Below, piece after piece: positions 3,165 to 62,521 of a DNA stretch of 64,000 nt (its first letter is position 1; every line of letters begins with the position of its first letter). Source of the DNA: Catajapyx aquilonaris (taxonomy: Eukaryota); assembly GCA_000934665.2 (NCBI GenBank), contig KZ538266.1, positions 1 through 64,000 on the forward strand, in the 5' to 3' direction. The notes below the pieces were generated by a model that made no database searches, was not told the origin of the DNA, and saw nothing but the letters and a program-made list of their open reading frames with translations. The position numbers and the translations under genes were made by a program.

Positions 3165-3756
3165 CTGCTGGATAAACCCATCTACGTGCCACACATCAAA
3201 TGGAAATAATTATTCGACAATCACATAACCGTGGGGGTCAAGAGTGGGGGCCATATTCACAGGAAAAGGAGGGCAGATTTTGACTATTTAAAGTTGAGTG
3301 CACGAAAATGTGTTACACACACGCATGTATTAACTCGTAAAATTAATTAGATGCGTCTGAAGTCTGGTATTTTGTTGTCAAAATGGTGTGAACTTATCTG
3401 TCTATAAAATCGTACTTTAGGGTGTAAATGACTGTGAGGGTGTCGTAAAACTTACACGCTGGTATAATTACGACGTAGCAATTTTCTTCAATGCTGCTGT
3501 ACAGCGCATGCGGAAGAACTTATTCACAAAAGTCGGCAGGAAGCGCGCGCCTTTTTTTTCTTCTTTTATATAGTTTTTTTTTCATGGGGCTCCTATAAAT
3601 GCGTGCTCACATGTCATTATGGGAAGGGAGGGGACAACAAGTGCTACTTACGTAGAAATTGAAGGGGGGGGGGGTAGAAAGAGGGATAATGCACGCACAC
3701 ACTGGTACCAAGATGCGTGATAAAGTCGGAATAAGATAACATTCCTAAGCACGTTC

Positions 3757-5502
3757 TTAGAAGTAGCCTCGACCCAAAAGGACTGCTGCTGGGAGGAGAA
3801 GGAGTCCTACGAAGATGGACGGACTCGATGCCCCGCTGCAGCCGTAGTCCTACAAACAAAATGACGAATTATTAGAAAAGAAAACCCCCATTGTTACCTC
3901 AGGGAAATAATGTTATTTTTAGCCAAGGTCAGCCGTGAAGACGTGCAGGCAAAACTAGTGCGCAATTGTGCAAATTGGGATGACAACCATGTGAATATTT
4001 GGTCATAGTTTGTAACAATGCAAAAGACTCACATAGAAGTTCTTCCTGGCCTGTTTGACCTGATCCCACATCAGGTCCTTTTGGCTGTAAGGAGAGTTGT
4101 CGTACTGTTCCTGCGCGCACTCGATGTCTGCTCCGTACGCCCTATGGGGACAAAATAAGGTCAAATTTGTGGCCCTCGGATTTGACCTCGTCACCTCAAT
4201 TCCCTGTACACTACCTGCATGTGATCTCTCGCTGCCTGTAGTGGGATCCTTCCATTCTGGCCTCGGTCCTGTAGTTTTGGGCCTGCCTGCAGATGTCTGT
4301 CAGGTAGTTTTGGGCCATCACGCAGCTCACTGCAACTGGATGGAAAAGTACAGGGTGATTGAAAACCGATTTTGGTGTCTGACAAACTCGCTTTTTTATA
4401 TAAAACGCTGTTTAATTCCTAATTGAGGTGCTAACAAATCGAGCAAACCGAATTGTTACCTTCCGCGAAATGCTCGCCATTAAATTTTAACTACCGATAT
4501 TTCAAGTGTTGCGAGTTGTGACAATAACTTTCACACACAATTTTAGAGTTTATCATATAACGCCCTATAGTTATGAATTTTTAAGAGATTGTGTTACCAC
4601 CCTATGTGAATGACAGTATTAAATTGTTTATAGCTCTATTTTTCTCCATTGAAACTAAGAATAGTTCCAATAAAAAGTGTACAAATACCTCAATGTCGCC
4701 ATAAAATTCGACAACAAATTGATTCTTCTTCAAGGGCATCCCCATAATTATTCCTGATCGCACTGGAATGTCCTACAGTCGTGTACATATAGGAGGTGAC
4801 TCAAACGAGCGGATGTGAAGCTAACAAGTGCGATACTGCGATGCAAAAAGCAGGAAATGTATACTGTCGAGAATAATCATATTACTTCCTAATTATTGTC
4901 ATAAATATTTTCAAACGCGCAATTTCAGCATCACATACGTGTTAACTCGGCGGTTGTACTCTGGTACAGACGTCACTGCATTTTATAAACTGCTAAAACT
5001 TGTGCAATGTAGCTCTCTGATCGAAGATCAGGTTTGCACATTGTTATCAAGTACCGATCACACTTCGGCTGTAATTTTTGATTGGACACCTGTCTGTACA
5101 TTAAAAAATTTGAATCGGTCAATACTACATGTACCTGTATGGAATGTCACCATTGGTATGTATGTCATGTGCGCCCTACGAAATCAATGCGACATGTGTG
5201 CAGGAAGGACGTACCATTAGGTTAATAACTCCTTGCTCAGCTCACCTTAAAGGCGAAGGTCATTACTATATGCGCGATATTTGCGCCTTGTACATATCGA
5301 TCGAAAATGTCGTCAAAAACAGCGAGCATTGTTCTTTCGAATCTTGTTGATAATGTACCTCGCGGGCAACACGTTTTCTCACCTGACCTACTTAGAGGTT
5401 ACGACGCACTTAAGTATTACGTTTCAACAACAAAAAAAAAGTGAAGGCGGGAAAGTAAGTACCTGCAAGCCCCACGAGAGCAACTGTCCAGAAGGTCCTC
5501 AT
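3757..5502 (-). CDS. Paralog 1: secreted, putatively GPI-anchored 4-Cys protein, 120 aa, 4 coding exons
   Basis: Exons 5502-5463, 4335-4215, 4141-4033, 3849-3757; all GT-AG; phases 1,2,0. Protein: MRTFWTVALVGLAVAVSCVMAQNYLTDICRQAQNYRTEARMEGSHYRQREITCRAYGADIECAQEQYDNSPYSQKDLMWDQVKQARKNFYDYGCSGASSPSIFVGLLLLPAAVLLGRGYF*. Confidence 0.9.
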
Positions 5503-6858
5503 TGTCCTAAGTTGTCGATGCGGTACCGGGTACGGACACTATAGACACTGCGGAGAGTGAGAAAAAGGCAGCTGTTACAAGCGTGAGACTCCGGTTGTGA
5601 CTGGTTGTGTGACGTGGTGGTGATTAAGAAGTTGTTAAGTCGTGGGTGTGGCGTGATTCAAAAACTTTCTCCCATCCCACCTAACATACTCACCAAAGAG
5701 AAGGAAAAAAAGGACCGGTCGCAATGGTCTCTGTTGGCAGTCTGCTCTACCAGTGGTTATTGCAATCGGGTCCTTTACACCCCCTTCCTTCCTTTCCCCC
5801 CCTACCTCTCTCTTTTCTCCACAACCCCTTTCCCCCTCCATGCCCCCCTCACATATTCCCTTACACATCGAGGGGCCTCCTTAGTTCCACATAACGTGAC
5901 GTAGGTAAAGAATGGGATGCGTGCCTGATCATCCCACGCAGCACGCAAGGACAATCAGCATCCAGCTACTTGCATTTTCTACACTAAACTTGGCAACACC
6001 GCACCGTGCGCATGGGCTGCAAGGAGGAAAAAAACTATTGAATGGAGATGCCAATATGGAAATTCTGTTATGACCCTCTCCAAGTTAGCATCGTACTAAC
6101 CAAACACCTGGCTGCCTGCTGTGAAAAACCTTGCAGTTGGCCCAATTGTTCGTTATTTTTTTTATATTTGTTTCCCTGTTTGCCGTATGGACGCGTTACA
6201 CTTCCTAAAATACGCAATTGTTGTGGAAGGTTACGGGTCGTAAACACTGGGCAAGGTCATGAGGGCCCCCCCATTTCGAACAGGTTCCACTCCAAGGGAT
6301 CGACCACCTGTTTATGCATGCGGGGGGGGTTATACAAAATGCTGCTTTTTTTATTTACTTGGAAGTGTCGGGTTGATCGACTGGCGTTTTGCGTATCTTC
6401 TACTGCTGAGGCGATATGGGCTTAAATAATTCAAAGCCATTGAAAGTGGCGGTCGATGGGAAAAGGAGCAAACATATTGTAAGGGAGCAGAACTTGGTGA
6501 TATTTTTCTAATGATATGACAAAAAATTACTGGTCGTAGCAGTTGGTACAAGATAATAAGGAAGGTGCCAGCAAAAGTCATAAAAACAGTAACAATCGCA
6601 TTTATTTTAAAAATTAGACATTGCGTCTGAAACATGCAACATAACGATTCAGTATGATCCAGTGGCAATGTTTCGTAATATTACAGCAACATTTTTTAAA
6701 GTGAATTAACGCATATCCTGAAAATAGCTTTCTGTTAATAATGAAAAAGATGGGTTGCATATAGAGGAATACTAGTTTTACAAGGTTTAATGTCGCTTTA
6801 CATGAAGTAAGAAATCACGGATGCCACTAGAGGCAAAGGCAATGAAGAGAGAGGAAGG

Positions 6859-7018
6859 GAGATGAGTCCACCCCCGCGTTGATGATGACTGTACTCAAAT
6901 CAGAAGTAATGATGAGGACCGGCCTTGGTCGGTCTTTTGGGAGATGGTCGGAGCCACCTGACCAATCAAAGAAAGCGGCCTATATAACACCCCCCCAGCG
7001 TGTAAGACGACACTTGAA
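6859..7018. repeat. 160-bp non-coding block, copy 2
   Basis: Near-identical to 3005-3164. It lies about 400 bp beyond the stop codon of paralog 2. Confidence 0.95.
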
Positions 7019-7409
7019 ATGGATAATCCCATTAGTGTGCTAAGTATAATTATTTGGTAATTTGTGTATTACGGTTATCATGAAGTAAACAGGGACTCTT
7101 TTTGGAAAGGAAATGGTCACCATACACAAATTAGATGGAATTCGCCAATCACAATGAAACAAACTCGACTCGGAGCGTAAACCGACGACACTGCAAGCTA
7201 CATTCACATAATATCGGAAGGAAACGGGCCATTTTTTATAGTTTGTTTACATGGAGCGCCTATAAATGCGTGTTCACATGTCATTACAGGATGGGAGGGG
7301 ACAGCTAGTGCTGCTTAGGTGGATATTTGGAAGGTGGAAAGAGGAGGACAATGCACGCACACATTGGTAATAATACAGTCGGAATGAGATAATATTCCGA
7401 CGCACGTGT

Positions 7410-8698
7410 TTAGAAGTAGTAACCTCGACCCAAAAGGACAGCTGCTGGGAGGAGAAGGAGTCCTGCAAAGAAGGACGAACTAGCAGCGGACGCTCTGTCA
7501 CATTCGGATCCCTGCAACAAAGCGATGGATGAGACAGAACCATTGTTGAAAAAAAAATATTACTTTTAGAGAGAGGTTTAGGACTAGGTCAGCCTGGGGG
7601 ATTGAGATTTTAGCGCGGAAACATTAGTGTGCAAATGAAGGTGGGTTCACATAGGCGTGGTTATCTTCGAATCGTTCATGAGGTTATACTTACAGCATAG
7701 TTCTTCTTGACATGTTGGAGTTGTAACTTCAACACGGGCTTCAGGTTTTCAGAAGCTGTATGCAATTCCTCCTGCACGCAGGTGACCTCTGCATTGAGCG
7801 CCCTGAAGACAAGCACAGGGTCAATATTGTAGGTCAATTCTACCTGATCTCATGATGACCTCTTTCCCAGCCCGTTGCGTACAGGCAGTTGTACTCATGC
7901 TTCCTTGCATTTGCGCCTTTGCTGTTAGACTCTTTTTCCATTTTTGCCAGGGTCCTGTATTCATCTGCCGGCCTGCAGTTGAGTGCACTGTAGTTCTCAG
8001 CCATCACGCAGTATGCTGGCATGAGATAACAATGTACAGCCGGTGAATTTCAAACCAGTTATGTTATCAAAAGTCAACAAATGATCTGTTAAAATGATGT
8101 GGGTTGACAGGTGGTTGGTTACATAAACATATACAATGTAATTACACACCAAATAATTCCCATTGTCAATGTACACATTTCCCTACGTCATCAACAATGA
8201 AAAGGAGCGCTGGTATTCGTCGATAGCTGACTGCAGCTGCGTAAGTGTGGCCTCATGTAGACAGTCTTATACTTATTACTCCTTGAAGGTTCAGCTATGC
8301 AGCAACTGGGCGCGATATCAGTGACCGTTTGCATAACAATAATGTCGCCAAAAACAGCACGCGCATTGTTCTTTCGAAATCTGTTGACAATAATAGATTC
8401 CATTCCAACAAGTTTTCTCTCCTGACCTACCAGGGTTGACTTAAATGAGAAAACAGTCTTTTCGTTACATAAATAAGTCCACAGAAAAATATTATTATTA
8501 TCCCGCTCAATGAATTTATTGTCGTTCTGATGGACGAATGAATGTGGCTTGTCCACATTTTTATACCATATCTGTTCATAGACTTGTCATGATGTCAGCA
8601 TACTGTACTGCTGACTGGTCGGGTTTTTTATTTTAATATTACCATTATAAGTGAGTACCTGCAAGTCCCGCAAGTGCAACTGTCCAGAAGGTCCTCAT
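7410..8698 (-). CDS. Paralog 2: secreted, putatively GPI-anchored 4-Cys protein, 127 aa (tandem duplicate of paralog 1)
   Basis: Exons 8698-8659, 8015-7883, 7802-7694, 7511-7410. Protein: MRTFWTVALAGLAAYCVMAENYSALNCRPADEYRTLAKMEKESNSKGANARKHEYNCLALNAEVTCVQEELHTASENLKPVLKLQLQHVKKNYAGSECDRASAASSSFFAGLLLLPAAVLLGRGYYF*. Confidence 0.88.
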
Positions 8699-11456: not shown

Positions 11457-13454
11457 TTAGACGGTCCTGAGGAGGAAGAAGGAGGTTGAGAGCAGCATCA
11501 GACTTGCGACGATGTTGACACCTGACAGTCCAGCGTCTGCCAAAATTTGGTCGCAATTGTCGGTCTGTTGACAAAGGGGGGGAAAAAAGATTTAGTCACG
11601 TACACTTGTGCACTAAACCGCGACGCTAATTATTATTACACAAACCTGGAATTGCCTCTTTGCGTTCTCGAGACTTTGGGTCTGCGTTCTGAGGGCTGCC
11701 CCTGAAGCTCTTTCCACTGCCATTTCGAAGCACTTGATGTTCATCTTACGTGACCTGAAAATAATGTCACCAATTACACCACCTGTATAGCCAGAAGGCC
11801 GTCTGTCATGTGCCATCTTCTGCTTGTCACGTAACCTCGAGATTAACAGAATATTTTCTTTGCATGAAATCAATGGAAAATTATATTTATGTCACAACCA
11901 ATGGTAATCAGAAATTAATAAAAACATGGCGCCAGAATTCATTAAAGATTAGTGTAACTCACTGGCATCGCAGAATCGGGCGCTGCTCTGGTGTAGCCTG
12001 GTTGGCCTGGGTGTTGAGTGACCTGGCTTCGTTGCAGGGGTCAATTAAGGTGTCATCCGCATTTGCAAGCAGGACTCCTGCCAATATAATAATAAAAAAG
12101 AGTGAGGGCATTGTAATGTGTTGTTCGCAATAACTCGGCTCGTTTCCGGTGCATTCTGATGCTATTCGGGCCTGGACAATGGTCAGGACATGCATCAAAA
12201 CGTCGCTGAATGATTAATGGTTGGTTTAGGAAGCACATTTGCATCAAAATGTAGGACACTTTTGTCGTGCAAATGCTTCGTTTTTCACTTTCAATTTGCA
12301 ACGATTTAGAGAATTTTTTTTGCTCGCAGTTTTTGAGTCGTGACCTACTTGGTGACATGACGTCACACGTTCAAACAGGTCTAGGCGGACTCTCAGGGAA
12401 GGAAAAAAATATATTTAATTAGCAGGTTTTACAGCAATGACTTCGTGAGATTTATGTGCGAATAGTAAAGCAGTTACGTGACCAGATTCGTATGTCTGAG
12501 ATAATTTGTCTAATTTCTTAAAAGCTGGACTGACCTGCTACTTCTATGTATACGTCACAGATGCAAATTTGAAGTGTGATCTACATCACACAAAAACTCT
12601 TTTGCCATTTTTGAAAAAAACGAGTCATCGACATGTTACAACATACAGGATGCTCACTCATTCGCATAAAAGGCGTTGTATGATCTCACCACTTTGCATC
12701 ACACCTTGTGTTTATTTTTTTTGCAAGAAGCGCTTCAAGGGCGCCACGGGCACACCCAATTATCATCGATTTTGGCACATCTTCTCAAGGTGTACCTTCC
12801 CACTTCTCAGAATTAATGTCTACAGTGCATTTTAATACGATTACTTGTCAATGTCATCGTTCAATCCAGCAACGAGTTGCTTTGGTAAACTCTGCATTTG
12901 CTTTTCTACCTACTGTCTTCTTGAACTGCAGCGCACATCCTGTGTCTGAATATCCCGAGGAAACAGCTAGAACTTTGGACACCCGCCTATTCGCAACACT
13001 TTGGAGCTCCATCCAGCACACTGGATTCGCCAAAAAAAAGCTTATCCACTAGCAAGCATGTTCTGGTTTTAAACACTAAAATGCGGTCGTATAAACAGCT
13101 ATAATGCCAATTTTAACATGTTGCAAAAAAATGGCGTCACCGTTCTTGCCATTGTTATGGCAAATGGTGACGCCATTCTATATACACTACTTGCAATAGC
13201 ATATACGGGTTGGCCCAACCCCGAAATCACCTGAACAGCCGAATTTCGCAACCTATCCAAACGTGGAGTCTCATCAAAGATTTATGCCTAACCTTCCAGA
13301 AATTGCCAAACCAAACCTTTAAAAAAAGATTCCCTGTTTTCCTATCCGAAAACACGTCAGGTCCAGTGATGGACAACCCCTTTGATTAATGTATATCGAT
13401 GCAATCGACCGAAGTATTACCTGCCAGCAGGACGAGAAGTAGAGACGTCTTCAT
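11457..13454 (-). CDS. Paralog 3: secreted, putatively GPI-anchored 4-Cys protein, 121 aa
   Basis: Exons 13454-13421, 12077-11963, 11754-11646, 11564-11457. Protein: MKTSLLLVLLAGVLLANADDTLIDPCNEARSLNTQANQATPEQRPILRCQSRKMNIKCFEMAVERASGAALRTQTQSLENAKRQFQTDNCDQILADAGLSGVNIVASLMLLSTSFFLLRTV*. Confidence 0.88.
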
Positions 13455-15390: not shown

Positions 15391-18300
15391 TCAACCCCGC
15401 CTGCTGAAGAGCAGCATGACAGGCAGAAGCATGAGGATGCTGACCAGGCTGTTGGTGGCTGCCCCGCTGCATCCAGCCTCCTGGAAATAAATAATTTAGT
15501 AGCACAGAAGTGTTAACCAAATTGGCGAGATTTTGTCCTTGGTCGGCATGCAGAATGCGGAATGTTGCCAATTGCCCTTTTCAGTCAAAGCAATTATTCG
15601 CAGCGACGCCCATAAGAAATATTATGGTGTTTAAGCATTCCTATCATCACTCAAGCCTTAAGCTGCGGGCAAGGACAGCCTTCAGGCTTTGCACGTTTCC
15701 GCCAAAATTGCGAAAAATCTGCGCGTAGAATGCTTGTGCATATGGACTCACCCGGAATGCCCTTCTGGCGGTGTCAACAATGCCCTGTCCGATTTGGTTG
15801 TTGCTAGACTGCTGCTGCTGGTTGCATTGTATCTGGAGACCCAGCATTCTGTGGAATGGGTTGCATTGTTAGCACATTGCATCAGATAATATTATAAAAC
15901 CTGAAATAGACTACGTGCGAATTTTCGTCCCACTGCTAGTTACTGCTAACTATACCAGTGTTGTCACTGGTACTGCTAAGTTAGCAGTATAACTATAGCA
16001 GTGGGACGAAAATTCCGCACCCAATGAAAATAGCAAGGAAAGGCCGCTGACATCAGTGTCCAGTGATATCATTTTCTGGGCCCACACACTTCTTGTTAAG
16101 AGTATGTCTTCTACTAAGGGGGGTTGTACCAACTCAAATTAAAGAGAAAATCTCACATTATGTCAATCTGATATTGTATTGTGCATAATCGGAGATTTCC
16201 TCTAATTTGATGCTTTTATGCCATTTTTTGCCATTTTTCATTGTTGTTCGTTTCTTTTGAGGCAGGCGTTAACATTACAATCTGGAAAAATTGTGTTTGA
16301 TTTCTGTGTTGTTGGGGGTTCTGACCTGCACTTGAGAGTGTAGTCGCCTGGATTGGCGTTGCTCTCCTGAGTCGCCGATCCCAACTGGTTGCAGTAGTCT
16401 TGGCCCAGGGCCACACCTTTCAATGAGAGAAACACACTGTACTCTGTAAATCAACGGTTAATTGAGGCACTCTAAGAGGGGGGGGAAGGCTCGCTGTTAA
16501 TCTTAATGTCAACACATTCGAGTCTGCCTGCATGATGCCCCAGCCTTGTTTAACACCACGGATGATGCTGGTGTCACGCTGTGTCCACTTGGATAGGTTG
16601 CAATGCTTTTTTTTTTTCATTGCTGGCTCGGACTTTTTTTTTCGCAGGCTCTGTACCGTGAAGTGTGCACAACATGGCAATTTGCATGCCTGCTGCCATT
16701 AAAGCTGCCTCCAGGCAACATGCTCCAAAACACATTGTCATCGTGTCAGTCACTCTTGAAGCAATGTCCATGAGCTTGTGTTCGATCAATTATTTCACAT
16801 GTCGGTGTTGCGAGAACTAAGCCGGAGACACCAGCCCCCCCAACATTGATATTATTATTAAACTACCTTTTACAGAAGATTACTGCGGATTGTCTCAGGC
16901 TGATCTGAAGGTGATTGGTTTATAAATACTGGCAATAAATCTCACGGAAGTAGACTGTAGAATGAGACAGATATGATCAAAAAATGATGGAAAACCCTGA
17001 CCTAGCGCAACGCACGAAGTAACGTGTCCCAATCTTCTTCCACTTATCAATATTGAAGAGCGCAAAAAATGAGCAGTCAAATTATAGGTATTGATCGTCA
17101 ATCAATTATACAGGATGATGCTCCTAGACTATGCCGTAAAAATGAGCAGGCTGCCTTCCCCGACATTACTGTTTATGAAAAGGCTGGGATTTACAGTTGA
17201 CATTTTTTTCCCTGTGCGCCACTAAAAGCATTGTGAAATTGTAAAAAATATAAGTTATGTTAAATAAATTTTTGCTGACATGTCAGATTGTATAATGAAA
17301 GATATGCAGTGAGCTAAATTAGGCTACATGCTCAGGACGCACGTTAAAATACCCCGAGTGTATAAAATCATCATAGATTGGTTTCATAAAATATTTTACG
17401 ATGCAAATCATACAGTTATTGCTTGAGGTCATGCCCTCTTAGCTACAAAAAAAGGGATCAAGAAATTTTCACATTATCATAATGGTTAATGTTAATACTG
17501 TACGAGTATGTCGAGTGGGTAGCGACTCTCAATTTAGTAACCATTGTGATGTGAAGAAGTAACAGCCTGACTGTAACTCTGAGTAATGAGCATAACCCAT
17601 GAAAGCCTTGACTTCAATCGCACTTAGGCAAATGTCAATAATCTATGAAAATGGCAGGTTTTCACTTTTTCATCAGATTTTATTAGCAATCATATTGGCT
17701 AAAATGGACTTCGCACGACATCTGACAAAAGCGATCGTTGGAGGGCTTCCTTTTTTTTGAACTTGCGTGCCCGGAGCCGTATTGCGCCTCAATTCGCCAT
17801 TTTCGTCTGTCCGAGGGCAAACATGTTCGCGGAATCCAATTTACATCACAGTTCGGTGGATGCGGAAGAGTAGCGTGCCCATGCTCCACAAACGGTCACT
17901 GGACACCCCCCACCCACCCAACCCCACCTAACTCACTTGTAAAAAAAGATATTTGCACAAAAAAGGCGAATTCCAAGGACGGCCCATTCTCTGTGTTCCG
18001 AGCCACCGAATTAGGCTTGGTAGACGCCCCACTCGGTACATGTCATTATGCACAGGGAACAACGCCTCTTTGCTCACCTCCCCCTACAACACCATCATGT
18101 GTGCAGAAATTTGCATGTGGATAGGGAATGGTCTTTTAGACCCCCCCCCCTTTCACGACGCATGAGTCTGAATTTTTTGCAGATTTAATGAGGCGCGATT
18201 TTGTCAGGTCACTTTCTCCGATGAAAGCACGCAAAACTGCAATCTGGGAAATGAAAATTACTGGCATTTTGAGAAAGGTGCTCTTGTCAAAGTATCATCG

Positions 18301-46200: not shown

Positions 46201-49200
46201 ATTAATGACCGAAGTGTGCAGATTTCGCCCGCTTGATTTTAACTGAATAAAGCACGATCCTTTGGGTTAATGTTCCTGGGCGTAACTCAATTTTGACCGG
46301 TTTTGTGGGTTGACATATTATTGCATAACGCTGTCCAATTGGACCTAATGTGGATTTAGTGTTAGTCAGTAGTAGGCTAAGTAGTAAAATGTGACTTATT
46401 AAAAGCAAATAAAGCTGGTTACTGCAAAATCATGTTGTCGCATTAGTTGCGACGCAGTTCTTGGTCCTACGACGTCACTCGACCGCATCGTATCCCAAAG
46501 ATCAAAAACCCAATCGATCATCCTGCCAGTCAGGCAACACACCCTGCATTACACCTATTTCCAACGCGACCTCTCCTTCTCTGGCTGAATCATCAGCACG
46601 CTCCGTCCCAATGGCCACGGCCTGTTCCCTCAAAACGTGCGAAATAGGTCGGTACCGTCCACGTGCGATGCATCACGCAGTGCCCAACAGCCCCCTTTCG
46701 AAAATTGGGCTGGTTTGAATTGATTCTAGAAACGTCCATGGAGGGCCTGCGCAAGTCACCCACTCGTCCAGAGAGAGCCAAGGCAGCAGCTACTGCATTG
46801 ATCCACACTACACACTATATAGAGACCACATTTCACCAGCAGCAGCCCCACCCTGTGCACTTACTACCACCACCCACGCAAACCCCAAATATCGATCAAT
46901 GAGAAAGCCTCGATTTATTTTTAGACGAATAAAAGAAACATATGTGTACCCATCAGGTTTGATTGGTCCTGTATAGTGAAGCAGGAGGCCAGTAGGTGAG
47001 AGCGGATCCATATAATCTGCGCAGCATCACCCTGTACCCTTCCTCCTCCTGCTCTCCTTGCTCAATGTCGTGTCCCCCATTTGCCCCCGTAGCAGCCATC
47101 CCAGCAGCAGTGTCAAGTTCATTTCCAAACCCAGGGCCGTTTATTTTCGTACCCGAGTTAAGTTCTCATTTTACGGGAAGAAGGGGCCAAGGCTGGAACC
47201 GGGTCTTTTGGTTTATTCAATGCGTTTCGGCGTGTCTTGAGACGGCCTCGATGCTTGGGGCGCGCCCTGGTGATTCGATATTAATAATGGGAACCAAGGC
47301 CCCTTCAGTTGCCATAGTGTTTACCACGAATTTGGTCGATTTCGGATGAAACGTAGTGAGAATCAGCATTTTTTTTACACTGCCCAGTAATAAAAGTGAA
47401 TCGTTTCCTATAATAGGAAATTAACAGTATTTAACCTGTCTCGTTTTTATTTGATCCAGCTTCGTAATAAAAGACAACACTAATGTTGTTGATCACATAT
47501 CTTGCGTAAAATGCAACTCTGCTGCTCAGAAATGTCACCAGGTAAGTTGGTCCGAATCATTAAGAATGAAATTGAAGGGATCAATCAAAACGCAATAGAG
47601 AACGTGTATATACAGCACATGATCGAAATATTGCGTCTTGATTGATCACTCTATATCCGTACCTGTCATAAAACATAAAACAGCAATTGGAGGTCTTTCT
47701 ACTCGAAATGAAATTCTGGTACTGTATAGTCTATGCTTCTATACTTGGTACATGGTAATATCGATGTCAATCATCCTGTTATATTTGGAAGTATTATCCC
47801 CACTACGTTTGCATAGTCAGTAATGATGCCAATGATGCATTTTAATCAAGAAGGCAGTAAACTATATAGGATACCTGATAGCAGATGGCAGCTGTTACGT
47901 ACACTTAGAAACATAATGAATTTTACCATGTGATTGTTACAGTGGAATGACCTTGAATAACTGGCGATGACTACCTCGTATCGTGCAATTTTCTGACCCA
48001 AACAAAGGGGACAAACACGCGTCTGTCTCTATAATCGATCATGGTTCATACATTTCAATCAATAATTATTCACCATTGGAGTAACTCACCTGCAGATGAG
48101 TCGGTCCTTGTCATAGGTGGTGAAAGCAGAGTTGGCCTTATCCACGTCCTGGTTCAGCTGAATCATGCAATCCCGAATTTCGTATTGAGCCCTTGTCACT
48201 ACGCCTCCTGAGAAAGGGAGAGGGGGAAAAAATGATCCAGAGCAACGTATAGTTAGTAATAATATCATATGCTACGAGTGTCGCGCAATATGTAGAGCAT
48301 ATGAGTAGTGCTGAGCATCACCAGCCGCCTCCGTCATACGCCGCTTCCTTTATGAACATTTCATAGCTTTTAGCATACCAAGTGGGCACCTCATTATTAT
48401 TATCCGGCTTGCTTGCCTTGTCCTTCGCACAGCTGCCGCTTCCTTCGCATTTATTCAGTCCAAGCATAACTGTCACAAATCAAATTAACCTGAAAATTTC
48501 CATCCAGTCGGGCAAAGACAACGTCACTGTAATGAGCCACGGTGTACTCAATGTAATCCATTTTTATCACAGTATAGAAGGCCTGCTATGATAATGGCAT
48601 GTTATCACTATAGTGTTAGCAATGCACAATTATTCAATCTTTCTAATGCACTCATCTTGGGGAAAAGTGGCAGCTTAACAAACAATTGGTTTATGGAGAG
48701 CTAATGTGAAATATAATATCTGTATTGCATTTCGTATCCAACGCAATGCAAAATATTTTTTATTTCAAGAGTCTGCAAGGGAAAGGAGTGTTATGGATTC
48801 TTTACTCCAGCAACGAGTTTCAGGGAAACAACAATCAGTACAGGTGACGATAAAAAAACAGGGACCAGCCTATATTTTGTTTGCTAGAGTAACCAATCCA
48901 AACTGTAATTCCCCGCCTCTCATCACGTAGTGTGTGTGTGTGCTTGGGGCCCTGCGCCGTCTTCTACAGTTCAGCTGAAAACATGCTTAGTGAGGAAATT
49001 TTCGCAGAGACCGGAGCATTTTGACTATAGAGACCTGTAACGATTTCCAAAAATGGAACAAGTACTGCAGTGCAACGTTAAAATATCACAATAATCCAGT
49101 TGATTATTATTTAAATAAATTGCGACTAATAGAATGACAATGGTTTCAGACTTACATTCAGTGTGAATCAGTTGTAAGAAACAATTTGGACAACTTTTCT

Positions 49201-50842
49201 ACCCTGCTGGATTTCGGCCCTGATTTTATTTTACCATTAAATATACCGCCAAAAGGCATAATTAATATACTAATTGGGCCTTCTCCGCCTCATATACCCC
49301 GCGAAAGACACCTCGGCCCCATTAAAAGAACGTGTGGATTTGGGCACATCCGAAGCCATGTGGAATGTGATTATACGCCAATCCCTTTACCAGAGAGCAC
49401 TCTAGGATAAAACGATCAAAAGGGCCTCCAATTACACGGGCTGCCATTACGTAAGGAATGGTGCACTCTAAAATCCAGGCCGAGTAAAGCTTGAAACAGA
49501 AAAAGGTGGTGGCTCAGAAAATGGGACTCCAAATGTGTATGCCGAAGAAAAAGGCTCTCTTTTTCTCCCCCTTGCTTTTCCCACCAGATCTCATCGAGGG
49601 AGGGCCAAAATCACTAATCAATCGTCATGCGAGGAAGGCTACATGGCAACCAGTGTGTGGGGTTGCCCTCCCCCCAAAAATTGATATGACCTACTTGAGC
49701 AGGTACACCCTGGAAATATTCCTGCAGAACAATATAGGTTTGATATGCATTGGCTCGGAACTACTTTTGTGTACTAAAACTTTCCAGAATAGTTGCGTAC
49801 GTATTAGTATTAGATAATGATATTTTTCGTTGGAGTTCTTTTTACAAATTTTTTTGCCCTTTGAATACCTGAAGTGCAAAACAATTAAAGTCGCATAATT
49901 TCTAAAATGTTATTATTGCATTTTTCTTTACGAGATGAACTTTCTACAACAGCTGTAATTTCTATTTCGTAACACTGACTTGACCAATTGAACGTACCCT
50001 TGAAGGACTCTATTAAACTATGACTGACTCAATCTCTATCAAAATGTGACTCTGATTGTTTTCACTTGACATATTACCCAATTCTATCGAGTGCATTTCT
50101 ACTAAGCAATTTTTGCAGATATATTTGCCCGTCAATTTGAGTGTTCTAACAAGATGACAAAATAAATACAGCATAAATTGAGTTTTTAGGCAGTTCAACA
50201 CCTAAATGCGTTGTGTATGATATTCGTCAACAGTGAAAAGAGAAAAAGAAACCCAAAATAATTTAGAAATTACACTACATCGTAATCAGCAATCCACCAG
50301 TAGGCTTATATAATTATCGTCGCATGTATTATGCGCAGCGAACCAGTCTCTAATAAAGGTGCAAAATTCTGCTCCATGATCAAAGAAAATGCCATAATGG
50401 TCAGGTTTTCGCTATATCCAGGGTCCGTTGGAGAACAATACTTCATTTCCCTGGTCTCAGAAGCGCATAATGCGTCAAAAAAGTTGCGAAAAAACGTACG
50501 TATCCAGGTTCAGAAAAATAATCACGATTATAACAAGGCAAATGGATTTTTTCTCCCCCAAAAATATTTCCATATTCCTGGTGCTACACACCGTGCGAAT
50601 ACTATAGTCCGAAACTATTTTTTGCAACATGCTACATGCTGTAGAGATGTCCAATTTTCGCACATTGACCTGTATGATGTCAAAAGTCCGTCAGAGCATT
50701 TGGCTGACATGTACGGGTGGGTTTACGGAAATCATTAATATTTTTTCCACATCAAATTATTGGCCAAGTGCACTGACGGAACGGGCATGAAAACAAATCA
50801 CTGACCTGCCACACAGAAGGCGAAGATCCAAAGGGCGCGCAT
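43276..50842 (-). CDS. Paralog 10: secreted, putatively GPI-anchored 4-Cys protein, 123 aa (sister of paralog 9, long introns)
   Basis: Exons 50842-50806, 48207-48090, 43583-43475, 43383-43276. Protein: MRALWIFAFCVAGGVVTRAQYEIRDCMIQLNQDVDKANSAFTTYDKDRLICRAHEAHVKCVERVLPDATSDMKDRTQQQYERFIKDRNEKCGSSPIGVGAPYLLAFLLAVVVALGQRGPGGPF*. Linkage across the 4.5-kb and 2.6-kb introns is inferred from phase and from homology to paralog 9. Confidence 0.83.
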
Positions 50843-52485: not shown

Positions 52486-54215
52486 TTACGACGAACCGGA
52501 GACCATTCCCAGGAGAGGCTTCAGAAGGAGCGACAGAAGCACCACTATAGCCCACGATGACCTCTGACACGCTGAGCCGCATTCAGCCTACATATAAAAA
52601 ATGCTTATTAAAATTTTACATAACACTACTTGGTGGCTCTAACCACACTATAAAATATAAGTATCTAAACTCTAGATCTCAGAAGTTCTCTTGTTACACG
52701 CATGACATTGCTCATTGCGCAATGTTACGTGCTGCGTGTATCGCTCTACAGAAGCGTGCTTCATCAGCTTGGTTGCTACTTATGAAAGTAATCCTCGTGC
52801 AGCTCTGGACGACCAGTGATTTCCTCACCATGTAAGCATTTCGGGCATCTTTGACCTTGAGTTCGACGCAAGGCTTGAGATCAGGACAGGGCCTGAGTTC
52901 CTCGCAGGCCCTGTGGTCCACGCAAGGCTCCTTCTCGTCGCAGTACTTCTCTCCGAAAGTGCAGTACTTCTGTCTCCTGGTGCACTCCTTCCAGACCTCG
53001 CACCAGTTCCTCCTCTGAAGACACTTGTCCCTGTAAGAGCATCTCTTCCTCAGCTCCACGCAGTTCTTTGGGTCTGAGCATCTCTGCCGCTTCTCCTGGC
53101 ACTCCTCAAGATCCTTATCGGTGTTGGCAGACACTCGGATCAGGCAGTCCAGCTGGACTCGCTGGGTTCTATGAAAACGAAGGGCGCAATTAAATAACTA
53201 TATGAAGGTTGTATCGAGCGTGTATGACCTCCGTGTTCATGATGTCGCGTGCTTGACGCCAGAACACACACGCAGCCAACGCAGCAGTCCAAACTTCTAG
53301 TCCTTGGAACAACCTTACCCTTAGGATTTCCCAGTCGCAATTATTATGATTCAACCAAAGTATGGATCTGACACGGAGCAGCGTACTTTTTGACGAGGAT
53401 GATAGTTGAAAGGGGAGACAATTGCCGAAGAAGTACAAACTACAGTAGCCTACTATTCGTGGAATTTATATTGTTTCAACCAGTATAATTACCACTCGAT
53501 TTTAATGCCAACTTTCGGTTGGAAAAACTTTATAAGCCATACTTTTTTATTTGCTATAGCCTACACACTGGAAAATCCACACTAAAAGTGTTCAGAAACT
53601 TGTAGACGAGATATTCCTATGATAATCAAAGACTGGGATTCGCTCAGAAGGCCTTGTGATACACTTGAATGGGGAATTTGAGAATTCAGGAACTTGCAGA
53701 TTAAAAGCGAGGCATAAAGAGAACGGAAAATGTTGCAATAGTATGAAACTTTGAAAGAAGAGTGGGAAGCGGTTGGAAGAACTTGAAGAAAGCAAACTTG
53801 TTGTTGATCCCGCAGGAGACAGTTTTATATAGTAAAATTGATTTCTTGTTATGGAGCCCTTTTTTTCATTTTAGCATATAATTTTGTTGACAGTTGAAAA
53901 AGATTTTGAGCGACCCTTCGAGCACAGCATTTTAGGCGAAGGCAACAAACAGTCTTACTCTTCTATATATCTAAAGAACTCATTATGAGTGAAATTGACA
54001 GAAGCTAATGACGCATAAAAACGCACTCTCCCTTACACGCATTCGAAGTCGTGCTTTTCGTGCTCGTCCTTGATGGAGGCCAGCTTGTCGTGCTGTTCTT
54101 TGTAGAGGTCGAAGCACTCGAAGACATTCTTCTGCGCCATGGCCACCTTATGGCTCCATTTCAGCGCCAGGCTCACCAGCACCAGAAGGCACCAGCAGCT
54201 GTGAGGAACTCCCAT
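52486..54215 (-). CDS. Paralog 11 (3-exon subfamily): putatively GPI-anchored protein with a 13-Cys ladder insert, 206 aa
   Basis: Exons 54215-54037, 53168-52829, 52587-52486. Protein: MGVPHSCWCLLVLVSLALKWSHKVAMAQKNVFECFDLYKEQHDKLASIKDEHEKHDFECVTQRVQLDCLIRVSANTDKDLEECQEKRQRCSDPKNCVELRKRCSYRDKCLQRRNWCEVWKECTRRQKYCTFGEKYCDEKEPCVDHRACEELRPCPDLKPCVELKVKDARNAYMAECGSACQRSSWAIVVLLSLLLKPLLGMVSGSS*. Confidence 0.9.
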
Positions 54216-55316: not shown

Positions 55317-56084
55317 CTACGACGGTGTAAGCATGTGTCCCAATGAAACAGGCAGGATCAGCCCCACGACCACCAGCAGTGACCACGGTGACCTCCTGCA
55401 CGCCTCACACTCCGCCTGCACAAAAGATGTGTTGGAAATTATTTGGAAGAAAACAAAAATCTAGTATAAGAATATGCAAAAGATAAGTCACCAAGTAGAT
55501 CTTCTTGGCCTCTGTGACTTTGATCTTGATGCAGGGGCCCAGTTTGTCGCAAGGCCTGAGCTCGTTGCACTCTATCCTGTTGATGCACTGTTGCTTGTTG
55601 TAGCACTCCTGGTCGTGTCCGCATCTCCTCTGCCTCCGGATGCAGGCCTTACGGTCAGCGCACCTCTTCTTCAGCTCCTGACATCCCTTCGGGTCGGCAC
55701 ACACTTGACGTCGAACACGACATTCCTCCAGTTCCTTTCCGGAGTTCACCAGAACCCGATTCAGGCACTCCAGCTGGACCTTCTGGGCTCTGAAAGTATC
55801 GGGAAGAACATGAGCACTGTTAGTAGACTCATTATTTGGTTTTTTAACAAATGAATGGTGTTACTACCCATTTGGATGCAATTCTTGGGTCAAATATTTT
55901 CAAGCACAAAAAATTCTTACTCGCAGTCATAAGTGCGCTGCTCGTTCTTGTCCTTAACTGAAGCCAATTTCTGGTGCTGTTCGTTATACAGGTTGAAGCA
56001 CTCGATGACGTCCCTTTGCGCCATCACATTCTGGCGCCATAATAAGAGAAGGACCAGCAGCCCCAGCACCACATCAGTCCTCAT
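55317..56084 (-). CDS. Paralog 12 (3-exon subfamily): putatively GPI-anchored protein with an 11-Cys ladder insert, 186 aa
   Basis: Exons 56084-55921, 55789-55492, 55415-55317. Protein: MRTDVVLGLLVLLLLWRQNVMAQRDVIECFNLYNEQHQKLASVKDKNEQRTYDCEAQKVQLECLNRVLVNSGKELEECRVRRQVCADPKGCQELKKRCADRKACIRRQRRCGHDQECYNKQQCINRIECNELRPCDKLGPCIKIKVTEAKKIYLAECEACRRSPWSLLVVVGLILPVSLGHMLTPS*. Confidence 0.9.
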
Positions 56085-58161: not shown

Positions 58162-60023
58162 TCACATAATGTTGAGGGCAGCCAGCAGCAAAGGCAGAAG
58201 AAGAAGCACCACCGAAAACACTCTCTCCCCGCATCCGCTGCAGTAGTGCGACTGTGCCAAAAGGAAATGACCATAATTACTGCAAGTTGTCTACTCCAGG
58301 ATTTCAGCAGAATTTTGGGCCACACCGTTCGCACCCTTTGGTGCGAACGAAGAGGAACATTGACTCACATTCATGAACAGCTTCTTGGCCTCGTTAACTT
58401 TAAGCTCGATGCAAGGCCCCAGGTTGTCGCAGGGCTTCCGGCCATGACACGCCTTGGACTTTGAGTCTTCCCCGCACTCTTTCTGCTCCAGATCCAGGCA
58501 CTTCTGCCTATCCTTCTGAGACTTCTCCAGGACTCGTATCAGGCAGTCCCACTGGACTTTCTTGGCTCTGGAAGCACAGATTGATTAGCTAAAAGTGGCA
58601 AAGGTGTCGCCAGGCTATTCTATTGTGCAAACAAGGGAGAAATTGAAGCAAGATGACTATGAAAAACCAGATTGTCACAGGTTTTCTTATTAGCCCCATA
58701 GTCCTTTATATTATGCATACTCGTATCGTATAGAGTATGGCGATGGGTTGGGACTGACACATGCTTTGCTGATTTCAAATTATGCGACATTATTGTTGCA
58801 GTTTATTCTTAAGCAACATGCTCTCGAAGAAATATCACGATTCACACGGACGAATGCGATTACCTGTTACTCTCGTGCAACCTTGGCTCGAAAATGATGC
58901 AGAACGTTTCTTGTGAATTCTGAGCTTCGTCAGGCCATTTTTTTAATCGTCAAGAATATTAAAATGTCTAGCAAAAATATCGATGCCAAGGTTCTAGAGA
59001 AATATTGGTCTTATCATAAATGTAAGGCAGAACTACAGCGCCCTTACTGCGCTGATCATACAGGTGTGTACATAAATAGTTGAAGCCCACTTACTCGATA
59101 GGTGCTATTTTCACATCCTGTACTGGCCACACAATCGAAATAAGCCAATTGGTAGCAGAAATTACTAGCAACAACAGCTACGATTGGCCGATTTAGATAG
59201 CGTGATGGCATGCTGCAGGGGAACCAACATTTGGTTTCAAGTAAGAAATATTTTTAGTCAGTCTTTACTCACACTATGGCAAATCTCAAGCCAGCGCATG
59301 ATCATTCAACGTACAGAATCGTACAGTAAAGTCCGGACCATTACGCAACGTAATACACCGCAAAGCTCCATTTTATGCATGCACATATTCGAGAAAAAAA
59401 ATCGACCAAATTGCCATGACAATACCGTCTAAAAGTGGATGCCATTCTTTTCATCGACAATGATTCTGGTCAATATGATCATGAACACTATCGTTTCAAC
59501 ATGCTGATGAAATTGCCCACACACATTCCCCAGGAGGAAAGAAAGGGAAGAAGTTACGCATTGTTCACTCCAGCAACCAGATTGAAAAGACTAACTTGAA
59601 ACGATCAAAAAGGACGTCCTTTTTTTAAAAAAATACTTTAAAATTCAGTCATAATGCTTTGTAGCTGGTGGATAGCAACAGTTTATGCTTCTCTCTAGTT
59701 GGTAGGATGAACAATCCGTAAATTCTACCCATTCCGGTCCCTCTTGAGCTTATCCGCCAATCAGCGCTATAGCCTGGACAAGGACAAACGAGGCTGTGTG
59801 ATTGGCTGATCTCAACTACAAACGACCCAACGACACCGTGTGAACCCGACAATGTTTCTTACTCGCAGTCGTAGGACTCCTTCTCAGCCTCGTCCTTGAT
59901 GATAGCCAGTTTTGAATGCTGCTCGTTGTACAGGTTGAAGCAATCAAAGACGTCCTTCTGCGCCGACACCCGGTGGCACCAGCTCAGCGCCACCACCACC
60001 AGAAGGCACCACAAGGCTCTCAT
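58162..60023 (-). CDS. Paralog 13 (3-exon subfamily): putatively GPI-anchored protein with a 5-Cys insert, 149 aa
   Basis: Exons 60023-59863, 58567-58369, 58251-58162. Protein: MRALWCLLVVVALSWCHRVSAQKDVFDCFNLYNEQHSKLAIIKDEAEKESYDCEAKKVQWDCLIRVLEKSQKDRQKCLDLEQKECGEDSKSKACHGRKPCDNLGPCIELKVNEAKKLFMNSHYCSGCGERVFSVVLLLLPLLLAALNIM*. Confidence 0.9.
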
Positions 60024-62013
60024 TATTGCTGGCTACGGTTACCTATATCTCTCCCTATTGAAGACACAGTTCATCCACACCTCAATGCCTAATGAGTAAA
60101 AGGGCATGATCAATATGTAACCAATTCCATGGCTACGTGTACTAAAAGGTGCACGTACCTGTGGAGTTATTGTCCTGTTAAGAAGCGAGTGGACCACCTC
60201 TGAGATCAGCTGTCCAGGACCAGCATGGTCACCTGAAGACAAGATTTTTTAAGGCATTAAATCAATGGGTGGGGGGGGAGACAGAGCACTGACTGCAGTG
60301 CAGTGAGTGGTTCTCGTGCGGAGTGTATCAAAAGCGGCCATGGATCGATCAGCATTCCTCATGACCCAAATTGACCAAAGGGGAAACCGGAGTGGCCGAA
60401 GAAAAATATTATGTACACAATAATGTCCCCCCGATGCATGAGCCAGTACGCCATGGTCGAATCGCGACTGAAAGTTGAACCAATCAGACTCTTATTTCTG
60501 GTGTAAGATAGAAATGGAGCAGAGTTGTACTTACCATCCAGCGGAGTCTGAAGGAGAGTGTTGATGGCCTTTGCGGCAGTCGGTATTGCGCCTGCGACGT
60601 CATCGACGACCAGGCATCGTCGTCGCCAGATGGCAGTGCCAGACATCGGATGATTCAGACAATATTTTTTCTTTGCAGTCGCCTCTCTGGTCCAGCGTGG
60701 GTTATGATGCTGTTTCCCCTCCCACGTACAGTATACATAATTTACATGCTCATAGTCATTTGCTCAGAGGCAGTTTCTCACACCCCCTTCCTTCCTTCCC
60801 TTGCCCTATCCCTTCATTGACTGCAAGAAGGGTGTCACTAATGTGTCACTAACTGTGCACACCAGTAATACTCTGTGCTCCACCCACTGACACTGAAATG
60901 TCACTTTGCAATTCAGTGACGTTAAAAGTCGGCCAAAGAATATTAATATGACAGTCGTGTTTTCGCAGAATATTTTAAGTAATTATTTAGTGAAATATAA
61001 ATGAAGTGTACTGTACACATTTTGTCGTTAATTCAAGCCTGTGACATGCACTTTAAAATCGTGATACAACAGTTAAATCCTACAGAGGCAATTTGATTAT
61101 CTTGTTAAAAGTGTCTTATGAGTTAGTGAACACTAAATGTCTAAAAAATAGTGTTATTCCTACCCTCCTTTGACTGCGGTTTTAAATGAAGGCATAACTT
61201 TATGAACCCATTTAAAATTTCAATTTTCGACCCTGATTATCAGGTAATGGAACCCTAAGGCAGAGTAAAGCTAAAAAGAAGAAGAAATGGCTCCATTAAG
61301 TAAAGTCAATCATCCCACGCTGATGGTGCATCGATTGAGCGGCAGAGAATGGATTCAAACCATGATTAAGAGAAAGAGCCTGGGCCTAATGGATGGAACC
61401 TTTATTAATTCAACGGGACGGTTATGCATCGAAGCGAACCAGGAACAGAAATATGTCAGAAAGGCTTTCTTCTAGTTCCCCCGACCGAATATTTAGCGTG
61501 CAGAAAATGTTAAACCAAGATTCGCTCATGAATATATTGGCACATGATGTTTCGTAAATGGACGCTTGATGGTCAATTCCAAGGAATCATATCATTCTAT
61601 AATTGCACAGGTTTCATTTGGCCTGATTATTTCATGATGTAGAATTAATCGTGATTAATGCTAGACATCTCAGTATCCCTATAGAAACTGACCCTAATGA
61701 TTTACGAATGGGTTATGAAACCGCGTATATAGAGACAAAAGGTTTCATACTGAACTGAAGATGCCAATGACAAGATATAAAATTCAAAGAGCAGCTTCTA
61801 ATTGGATAGAGAAAATTTCCCATTGGCACCTTGGGTTCATTTTTAAACTTTTGACCCTGAGTTAGTCCCAACTTCGGGTTGCCCATCTGCCAGTGGCTAG
61901 ATTGGCCCATAAATAAAGCCAGGTTTCACATTTCCTGCCACTCTAAACTTTAAAAATTCGGCGACAGGAACTCCCTAAAGTCTACTCGTGAGCAGAATCA
62001 AAGAAGGCCACTT

Positions 62014-62521
62014 TCAGGACGGCGTAACGACGTATCCCATGAGCATGGTCAGGACAAAGGCCGCGAAGGTCATGAGCTGCCACGGTGACCTCTTGCACGC
62101 GTCGCAATTTTGCTGCACACCCACAAGGCAAAAGATGGTCAACTATTTTTTGTTCCATGATTCGGGAGCAATCTACCACTCACTTTGAGCCCCTTCTCAG
62201 CTTCTTTGACCTTCAGCTCGACGCAAGGCGCCAGTTCCTTCAGCTTCTGGTCAGCTGCCACGTTCTGATGAACCCGGTTCAGGCAGTCGAACTGGACCTT
62301 CTGTGCTCTGGAACAGGACTGGTCAGCAACAAAGAGTGGACAACAGAATTCGCTCCATACTCGCAGTCAATATCGCGCTTTTCTTTTTCATCCTTGATGG
62401 AAGCCAGCTTGGCATGCTGGTCGTTGTACAAGTTTTGGCACACTATGACGTCAGTTTGCGCCATCACTTGGCGTCCCAGTTGCAGAGCCAAAAGTGTCGA
62501 CAGGCACCACAACCTCATCAT
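62014..62521 (-). CDS. Paralog 14 (3-exon subfamily): putatively GPI-anchored protein without an extended ladder, 127 aa
   Basis: Exons 62521-62361, 62307-62184, 62112-62014. Protein: MMRLWCLSTLLALQLGRQVMAQTDVIVCQNLYNDQHAKLASIKDEKEKRDIDCEAQKVQFDCLNRVHQNVAADQKLKELAPCVELKVKEAEKGLKQNCDACKRSPWQLMTFAAFVLTMLMGYVVTPS*. Confidence 0.9.

Follow-up and report, generated by a model that had tools for sequence, protein, structure and literature searches.

Fourteen neighbouring genes on one strand of the window (the whole 64,000-nucleotide stretch of DNA analysed) raise the question of what kind of protein such an array encodes, and whether the fixed cysteine scaffold and divergent sequences of its members make it a variable recognition repertoire, as the original prediction had proposed. 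Our best reading, which we hold at a probability of about 60% and which is drawn from sequence, is that these are tandem paralogs for small, fast-diverging, GPI-anchored helical surface proteins that would act as membrane-tethered ligands or co-receptors, on stalks that appear to be modular. The family would have grown by tandem duplication, with its mature exons diverging rapidly.

Rebuilding the models from their coordinates gave 14 intact paralogous genes on the minus strand between positions 3757 and 62521, 10 with four exons and four with three, and in agreement with the original prediction all of them run in an open frame to a stop codon and none is a pseudogene. The 38 coding introns, 53-4506 nt in length, are GT..AG without exception, and the precursors measure 113-206 aa. 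The genes are as follows.

62014..62521, minus strand: g62, three exons (62521-62361 / 62307-62184 / 62112-62014), 127 aa; six Cys downstream of the signal peptide, introns of 53 and 71 nt.
58162..60023, minus strand: g58, three exons (60023-59863 / 58567-58369 / 58251-58162), 149 aa; two additional two-Cys units in the middle exon.
55317..56084, minus strand: g55, three exons (56084-55921 / 55789-55492 / 55415-55317), 186 aa; middle exon of 298 nt holding a ladder with 11 extra Cys.
52486..54215, minus strand: g53, three exons (54215-54037 / 53168-52829 / 52587-52486), 206 aa; middle exon of 340 nt holding a ladder with 13 extra Cys.
43276..50842, minus strand: g48, four exons (50842-50806 / 48207-48090 / 43583-43475 / 43383-43276), 123 aa; introns of 2598, 4506 and 91 nt.
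39687..41069, minus strand: g40, four exons (41069-41033 / 40892-40772 / 40445-40340 / 39782-39687), 119 aa; nearest paralog of g48.
35160..36854, minus strand: g35, four exons (36854-36806 / 35737-35620 / 35433-35325 / 35255-35160), 123 aa.
30015..31038, minus strand: g30, four exons (31038-31005 / 30578-30434 / 30361-30247 / 30140-30015), 139 aa.
26748..28859, minus strand: g27, four exons (28859-28823 / 28763-28637 / 27249-27141 / 26891-26748), 138 aa; linker rich in Pro/Thr/Ser upstream of the tail.
21576..24057, minus strand: g22, four exons (24057-24018 / 22778-22664 / 22590-22482 / 21761-21576), 149 aa; Pro/Ala-rich linker of ~30 residues upstream of the tail.
15391..19733, minus strand: g15, exons 19733-19697 (candidate first exon) / 16443-16326 / 15848-15752 / 15480-15391, 113 aa; last exon recovered by a profile of the 13 other last exons (E 8e-6).
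11457..13454, minus strand: g11, exons 13454-13421 (candidate first exon) / 12077-11963 / 11754-11646 / 11564-11457, 121 aa; an alternative three-exon model starts at the in-exon ATG 12111.
7410..8698, minus strand: g7, four exons (8698-8659 / 8015-7883 / 7802-7694 / 7511-7410), 127 aa.
3757..5502, minus strand: g4, four exons (5502-5463 / 4335-4215 / 4141-4033 / 3849-3757), 120 aa.

The scaffold claimed for the family was recovered with the same counts. The first two cysteines are separated by 20 (g15) to 29 (g7) residues, the spacing being 24 in seven of the 14 genes, the second and third by eight residues in all 14, and a fourth Cys lies among the first five residues of the last exon in every gene, 29 to 33 residues past the third. 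A phase 2 intron falls exactly 2 nt past the Cys2 codon and a phase 0 intron directly upstream of the last exon, both in 14/14, and a phase 1 intron within the signal peptide is found in all 10 four-exon genes. Seven of these 10 (g48, g35, g27, g22, g11, g7 and g4) share a middle exon of 109 nt, and in the other three it measures 106, 115 and 97 nt. Intron phases and Cys spacing identify members of the family even after sequence similarity is lost. As a control for chance, complete chains of an A exon, a B exon and a last exon were counted on each strand, in reversed sequence and in shuffles; the minus strand has 31 A-ends in complete chains, which include 13 of the 14 genes, the remainder being false A-ends linked to genuine exons further downstream, against none on the plus strand, 0 and 0 in the two reversed sequences, and 0-2 in 10 shuffles.

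The predicted junctions were compared with contigs from public runs of the same organism, X5 (RNA-type) and X1 (DNA), over window positions 43200-62600, with the nine genes from g4 to g40 lying outside this range. At nine predicted coding-intron borders in four genes (g62, g58, g55 and g48) X5 contigs skip the intron exactly. Both introns of g62 are absent from an X5 contig; both coding introns of g58 are spliced out, together with a 5'UTR intron (60087/60158); and intron 2 of g55 is removed, with no joint matching intron 1 of g55 or either intron of g53 among the X5 joints listed for this range. A single X5 contig of 2155 letters links all four exons of g48 and a 5'UTR exon, skipping all three introns, with the joints 43583->48090 (4506 nt) and 48206->50805 among them. 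None of the X5 joints occurs in the X1 DNA contigs, whose sequence reads through the introns. The splice sites proposed for g62, g58 and g48, and for g55 intron 2, are therefore matched exactly in the X5 contigs, and at least four genes of the array are expressed in one run. The array is a real, transcribed family in a genome of animal type, predicted to encode lipid-anchored surface proteins, and small multi-exon genes of this sort are missed by gene callers. The label of animal type follows from gene structure, namely the GT..AG introns of 53-4506 nt, the introns in 5'UTRs and a transcript contig that extends 1600 letters beyond the 3' edge of the range compared.

We then consider to which family, if any, the proteins belong. 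The original prediction recognized no described family, and single-exon searches matched none: a Pfam scan of 29 single exons gave no match, a weak test given fragments of 32-113 aa and the HMMER filters, and single-exon queries, likewise weak as searches, found no relatives in two protein collections (5.8 and 15 billion), the PDB, the ESM Atlas or metagenome contigs. The sensitivity of such searches is low enough that even paralogs within the array miss each other. The claim is nevertheless weakened by a Cys spacing that appears close to that of neuritin. Neuritins (CPG15/NRN1) are small, helical, activity-regulated GPI-anchored ligands of vertebrates, made with a signal peptide, ~90 mature residues and a GPI signal, in which the last Cys stands a few residues upstream of the omega site and the six cysteines are spaced C-x9-C-x24-C-x8-C-x7-C-x27-C. 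The array pattern, C-x24 (7/14)-C-x8 (14/14)-C-x29..33-C directly upstream of the tail, would correspond to this once the first and fifth are left out, and those two cysteines might have been lost together as a disulfide pair. Short stretches past Cys3 in g48 and g40 may also resemble neuritin, as may M-W-D...K-N residues encoded by exon 3 of g4.

It is possible, although doubtful, that the genes are diverged neuritins that multiplied here to 14 copies and lost one disulfide in each. Neuritin (NRN1, NRN1L) would share with the array a small precursor with a signal peptide and, as predicted for the array, a GPI signal; ~70-90 mature residues, helical by prediction in the array; the C-x24-C-x8-C core; a last Cys directly upstream of the anchor site; and a short first coding exon ending within the signal peptide. 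The differences are that the array proteins have four scaffold cysteines and neuritin six, the first and fifth of which have no counterpart while the x24-x8 core and the last one agree; that the array comprises 14 tandem copies and neuritin one or two dispersed genes; and that a Cys ladder or a mucin-like linker is present in some of the array proteins. The Pfam family NRN1, which we take to be PF15056, was absent from the same weak scan of exon fragments even with E allowed up to 10; introns as short as the 53-59 nt found here are atypical for vertebrates, and to our knowledge neuritin is familiar from vertebrates only. A literature search returned nothing on the neuritin Cys pattern, its exon structure or invertebrate relatives. 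As far as we know neuritin itself is poorly understood and its receptor is still unclear, and an expanded relative would provide natural variants and an evolutionary context for that ligand.

Turning to divergence, the residues between the cysteines had been described as largely unalignable between clades, and this is borne out by mature parts that are 16-39% identical across clades and by profiles that, built without a given clade, mostly miss it. In the three-exon clade (four genes) dN/dS over the mature part comes to 0.16-0.33, and the two young pairs g4/g7 and g40/g48 have 0.95 and 0.86, values that are unreliable for genes so short and partly converted. The low ratios of the three-exon clade indicate that it evolves under purifying selection and that its proteins are functional. 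In g40/g48 synonymous sites (pS 0.30) are far better preserved than the introns (z below 1). In g4/g7 the signal exon and the tail exon are 90% and 82% identical and the mature exons 58-60%, but the introns of the central block have diverged as well (z of 3.5 and 6.4 versus 14-17.5 for flanks and end exons) and the flanking DNA is alike between the two genes; the diverged central introns suggest that the pair is a mosaic or has undergone gene conversion, and speak against selection on the surface alone.

These data bear on whether the array is a true variable recognition repertoire, an allorecognition, gamete, neuronal or immune code in which each cell or individual would display its own subset of the proteins and diversifying selection would act on their surface. 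A fixed scaffold over such divergent mature parts, free of pseudogenes and poor in sequons, would fit a repertoire, and the ratios of 0.86-0.95 in the young pairs and the contrast between end and mature exons in g4/g7 are in line with it. Against it stand the purifying selection in the three-exon clade, the diverged central introns of g4/g7, the small size of a repertoire of 14 genes and the 2 differences across 19.4 kb between the window and the X1 contigs, which possibly come from the same sample. Furthermore, the spliced contigs of g48, g55, g58 and g62 all come from one run, so that the mutually exclusive expression raised by the original prediction shows no sign at the level of the sample. 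The array stands as an expressed, divergent tandem family on a fixed scaffold, and its interpretation as a variable repertoire appears unlikely.

For the surface-ligand reading, the route to the membrane was judged on all 14 models by crude rules of our own. Each precursor has a signal peptide by these rules, as had been claimed, with a hydrophobic core averaging 2.2-3.9 (Kyte-Doolittle) and a (-3,-1) cleavage site upstream of Cys1, and would be routed into the ER. The claimed GPI-type tails fared well in part: a hydrophobic stretch stopping 0-8 residues short of the C-terminus is present in 14/14, but a small-residue omega candidate was found in 12, g55 and g53 having none by the crude rule. 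The attachment signal would be formed by the C-terminal 22-32 residues past the last Cys, comprising small residues, a short spacer and a Pro-containing hydrophobic tail. In 11/14 proteins the last Cys stands 22-32 residues before the C-terminus and this putative signal follows it directly, so that their folded domain would sit directly upon the lipid anchor. That the tail is instead that of a single-pass membrane protein with a cytoplasmic stub of 0-8 residues, or a propeptide removed before secretion, is very improbable, for although GPI attachment is a prediction and the charge-free stretch of 18-20 residues in g62, g48 and g35 is long enough to span a membrane, the stretches measure 9-20 residues over the family, contain Pro in 9/14, follow Ser/Gly/Ala/Asn/Asp runs at the expected omega-site distance in 12/14 and end without a conserved cytoplasmic motif.

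As for the fold, AlphaFold2 models of single exons show helices for exon 1 of the three-exon clade (pLDDT 78) and for the middle exon of g53 (pLDDT 68). Based on these models of middling confidence, the mature part may be mainly helical, with helix A between Cys1 and Cys2, a loop of eight residues, and helices B and C between Cys3 and Cys4, braced by two disulfides, for which the simplest pairing would be Cys2 with Cys3 to close the loop and Cys1 with Cys4 to hold the ends together. In g22, g27 and g30 the domain would be lifted by a Pro/Thr/Ser/Ala-rich linker, and in the three-exon clade 0, 2, 5 or 6 inserted units between helices B and C would enlarge it; each ladder unit has ~13 residues with two Cys (C-x6-C-x5) and is rich in Lys/Arg/Glu. 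N-glycosylation sequons number 2, compared to 6.8 +/- 2.5 in shuffles, 3% of which have two or fewer, and the proteins may bind different partners via a nearly sugar-free, charged helical face. Should the family prove lineage-specific, a role in recognition between cells, or between host and partner, would be a candidate. A more speculative and rather improbable version is that of an undescribed family of lineage-restricted helical 'mini-receptors', GPI-anchored, with the four-Cys scaffold kept only as gene structure, an exposed face too diverged to be recognized by sequence, and stalk height tuned by the mucin-like linker and the 13-residue two-Cys ladder, together forming a combinatorial recognition set.

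The ladder recalls beetle antifreeze proteins, whose 12-13-residue repeats with Cys at every sixth residue and a Thr-Cys-Thr ice-binding motif form beta-helical coils; such a disulfide beta-helix was rejected, as the ladder has no T-C-T motif and its AlphaFold2 model (pLDDT 68) is helical. Ly6/uPAR genes resemble the array as predicted here, lying in tandem clusters and encoding small GPI-anchored surface proteins that evolve fast, are braced by disulfides and serve as ligands or co-receptors, with a phase 1 intron that splits the signal peptide. Their domains are, however, beta-structured, with 8-10 Cys, an N-terminal C-x2-C and a C-terminal CC...CN, whereas the array proteins have four Cys (6-18 in the ladder clade) and predicted helices, and the three-finger domain was discarded on Cys count and spacing, the predicted helices and the lack of a UPAR_LY6 match among the 29 single exons. 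Finally, a Foldseek search with the g53 middle exon gave weak rows, none significant, among them the small complex-I subunits 8e73_S5 (E 3.9) and 7a23_j (E 8.2), apparently of the twin-Cx9C type, at 31-35% identity across ~50 residues. CHCH-type hairpins (twin Cx9C) resemble the array proteins as disulfide-braced helix-loop-helix structures, but they are cytosolic or mitochondrial with Cx9C inside each helix, whereas the array proteins are predicted to be secretory and would carry the x8 in the loop.

The window is eukaryotic DNA with a G+C content of 40-45%, in which no long ORFs of bacterial type, no Rfam families and no tRNA genes were found. Self-comparison returned a few diverged direct repeats within it, and their minus-strand translation gave a signal peptide first and then a Cys...Cys segment. 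Exons were located on the minus strand by pattern scans and three-frame reading, which yielded complete models for 14 genes, named by their kilobase position (g4 to g62), with every frame open, GT..AG ends at 38 of 38 coding introns and metazoan-looking polypyrimidine tracts; g15 was found via a profile of the 13 other last exons (match 15394-15495, E 8e-6). These rebuilt models agree with the original prediction in gene number (ten with four exons and four with three) and in the uniform intron phases, 1, 2 and 0 in the former and 2 and 0 in the latter, the phase-2 intron lying exactly 2 nt past the second scaffold cysteine, Cys2. The scaffold was likewise reproduced: Cys1 and Cys2 are spaced by 20-29 residues, Cys2-x8-Cys3 is present in 14 of 14 genes, the middle exon is 109 nt in seven of the ten four-exon genes, and the last exon carries a Cys among its first five residues.

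Complete chains of the three exon types start on the minus strand from 31 A-type ends (ends of the exon that closes after Cys2), with 13 of the 14 genes among them; the remaining A-type ends are spurious and are chained to real downstream exons. The plus strand gave no complete chain, nor did either of the two reversed sequences, and the ten shuffled versions gave 0-2. Exon profiles matched on the minus strand only and gave no fifteenth member in the window.

Transcripts were compared using X5, a public sequencing run of the same organism whose run type is unrecorded and which contains a fraction of 0.24 of the words sampled from 52600-62530. The comparison spans 43200-62600, with gaps in the X5 cover that include the junctions of g53; the nine genes from g4 to g40, including exon 1 of g15 and of g11, are sequence-only models. 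Within this span, X5 contigs skip exactly the introns that had been predicted.

Introns skipped in X5 contigs (window coordinates); read on the plus strand, every joint is bounded by CT..AC.
62112/62184 and 62307/62361, minus strand, introns of g62
58251/58369 and 58567/59863, minus strand, introns of g58
55414/55491, minus strand, intron of g55, cut +1
43382/43474, 43583/48090 and 48206/50805, minus strand, introns of g48
60087/60158 and 50856/50965, minus strand, 5'UTR introns

A second public run, X1, which is a DNA run, gave one unspliced contig over 45730-62600 and none of the X5 joints. Because the X5 contigs are spliced and the X1 contig is not, we infer that X5 holds processed transcripts. 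The array is confirmed, now with transcript support. The 4506-nt joint in an X5 contig also shows that g48 is a single gene, as modelled originally, and rules out its reading as two partial genes or pseudogenes, 'g43' and 'g48'. On the 3' side of g48, at 43264 and below, a spliced X5 contig runs 1600 letters further, and the message may have a 3'UTR of ~1.6 kb towards g40.

The most likely reading, which we place at a probability of about 0.6, is that the products are helical surface proteins, braced by disulfides and held by a GPI anchor, and that the family uses stalk modules of two kinds. The 14 precursors are 113-206 aa long, and each has a hydrophobic core near its N-terminus and plausible cleavage sites ahead of Cys1. 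In 11 genes the last Cys is followed by 22-32 residues; g30, g27 and g22 have 37, 43 and 58, respectively. This tail runs from small residues through a short spacer to a hydrophobic stretch, the order usually seen in GPI-attachment signals. The hydrophobic stretch contains Pro in 9 of the 14 proteins and ends 0-8 residues before the C-terminus, and a crude rule of our own gave a candidate omega site, the residue of GPI attachment, in 12 of 14. The extra residues of g22 and g27 are rich in Pro, Ala, Thr and Ser, and these linkers resemble mucin-type stalks. In the three-exon clade (g53, g55, g58 and g62) the basic scaffold has two additional Cys (six Cys in g62), and 0, 2, 5 or 6 units are inserted between the predicted helices B and C, each unit having ~13 residues, two Cys (C-x6-C-x5) and a composition rich in Lys, Arg and Glu. 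This ladder was rejected as a recent DNA tandem repeat, with only one TRF row inside it (18-nt, 2.3 copies), and as a beta-helix like that of beetle antifreeze proteins, with no T-C-T motif and helices predicted. AlphaFold2 modelled helices both for exon 1 alone of the three-exon clade (pLDDT 78) and for the middle exon alone of g53 including its ladder (pLDDT 68; 38-68 over five models), and in Foldseek against the PDB with an AlphaFold2 exon model no row reached E 0.001. N-glycosylation sequons are scarce, with 2 observed against 6.8 +/- 2.5 in shuffled sequences, of which 3% have 2 or fewer.

Identity over the mature part is 53-61% within the three-exon clade, 54% for g40/g48, 33% for g4/g7 and 16-39% between clades. 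Profiles built without one clade and run on the 2810 open frames of the window mostly missed the left-out members, which ranked first in 2 of 14 cases for the A exon, 3 of 14 for the middle exon and 2 of 14 for the last exon, with best E-values of 0.0017 (middle exon of g35) and 8e-6 (last exon of g15). As originally noted for the residues between the cysteines, the clades are largely unalignable, so what links them as homologues is their gene structure, Cys spacing and place in the array rather than their sequence. Since paralogs miss each other here, relatives should likewise escape sequence searches elsewhere.

Pfam searches with 29 single exons (10 + 19) at E up to 10 gave sub-threshold chance rows only, and 16 further long open frames of the window gave no match. 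Among 5.8 billion word-indexed proteins, exon 1 of the three-exon clade, run against the longer proteins, drew 2464 candidates, all weaker than E 0.01, and the 14 A exons drew 7998, all weaker than E 10. The four long middle exons, compared by full HMMER with 1.84 billion representatives, returned one match, a euglenozoan EGF-repeat protein aligned over 13 weak Cys-rich stretches, which we judged spurious. The PDB searched by sequence gave 0 matches and then one chance row, two ESM Atlas searches gave no usable match, and of 116 pattern matches in JGI metagenome contigs 0 were confirmed. These blank searches carry little weight, as the queries were single exons, the collections lack the organism's own 14 proteins, and the paralogs miss each other.

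The original statement that the array was not recognised as a described family holds for Pfam and the collections, but the Cys spacing is close to that of neuritin (CPG15/NRN1), which we take to be the closest described protein to the scaffold. Neuritin is a small, helical, GPI-anchored ligand with six Cys spaced x9, x24, x8, x7 and x27, the last just ahead of the anchor site; the array scaffold equals this pattern minus the first and fifth Cys. The array genes could tentatively be seen as an expanded, diverged neuritin branch: the x24-x8 core and the terminal Cys match, and a few short stretches after Cys3 in g48, g40 and g4 look similar to neuritin, although the Pfam model found no match in the 29 single exons. 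The portions of the literature that our search reached offered nothing on the neuritin Cys pattern, its exons or a similar family. In genomic behaviour the closest analogue is the Ly6/uPAR clusters, but the array proteins show neither the Cys pattern nor the beta fold that define those clusters. Small anchored proteins encoded by fast-evolving tandem families are a known kind; the present array lacks annotation, is expressed, has a tidy structure and lends itself to direct testing.

The sequences had also been read as a variable recognition repertoire. By Nei-Gojobori analysis of the mature part, dN/dS is 0.16-0.33 in the three-exon clade, 0.86 for g40/g48 and 0.95 for g4/g7, whose signal peptide and tail give 0.18 and 0.47. 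Between g4 (3757-5502) and g7 (7410-8698), identity is 75-90% over exon 1, exon 4 and the flanks, as against 58-60% over exons 2 and 3; for the two end exons, the 3' flank and portions of the sequence upstream taken together, the range is 69-90%.

Similar flanks of g4 and g7 (self-comparison).
2974-3825 / 6819-7481 and 5306-6291 / 8341-9331, around g4 and g7 of the minus strand

Introns 2 and 3 of this pair are also far more diverged than the flanks (z 3.5 and 6.4 versus 14-17.5), and over the central block, which spans exons 2-3 with introns 2-3, likeness falls close to the level of unrelated sequence. Because the introns have diverged too, the pair is a mosaic, with either its ends homogenised or its centre older, rather than a case of clean surface selection. 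For g40 (39687-41069) and g48 (43276-50842), exon identity is 73-80% (z 11-19) and the introns and flanks are alike only at the shuffled level (z below 1); the low synonymous pS of 0.30 may reflect gene conversion limited to the exons or constraint on synonymous sites. With purifying selection in the three-exon clade, a mosaic history in the youngest pair, g4/g7, and four genes co-expressed in one run (X5), the variable repertoire is not supported and is one possibility that we regard as unlikely.

A 249-codon stop-free frame on the plus strand (62076-62825), antisense to g62 and extending past its exons, was rejected as a gene, having no Pfam match, start codon or protein-like composition, and probably reflects chance and an antisense effect of codon bias. 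Palindromic foldbacks of 58-132 nt, perfect to 78%, were found by self-comparison at 1764-1821, at 15915-16020 in intron 2 of g15 and at 27890-28019 in intron 2 of g27. Intron 2 of g48 (4.5 kb) contains a very high-copy short element at 46100-46340, with a summed X1 contig depth of ~2500 against ~34 elsewhere, many loose ends and partial contigs 90-95% alike, and it is probably a MITE-like repeat.
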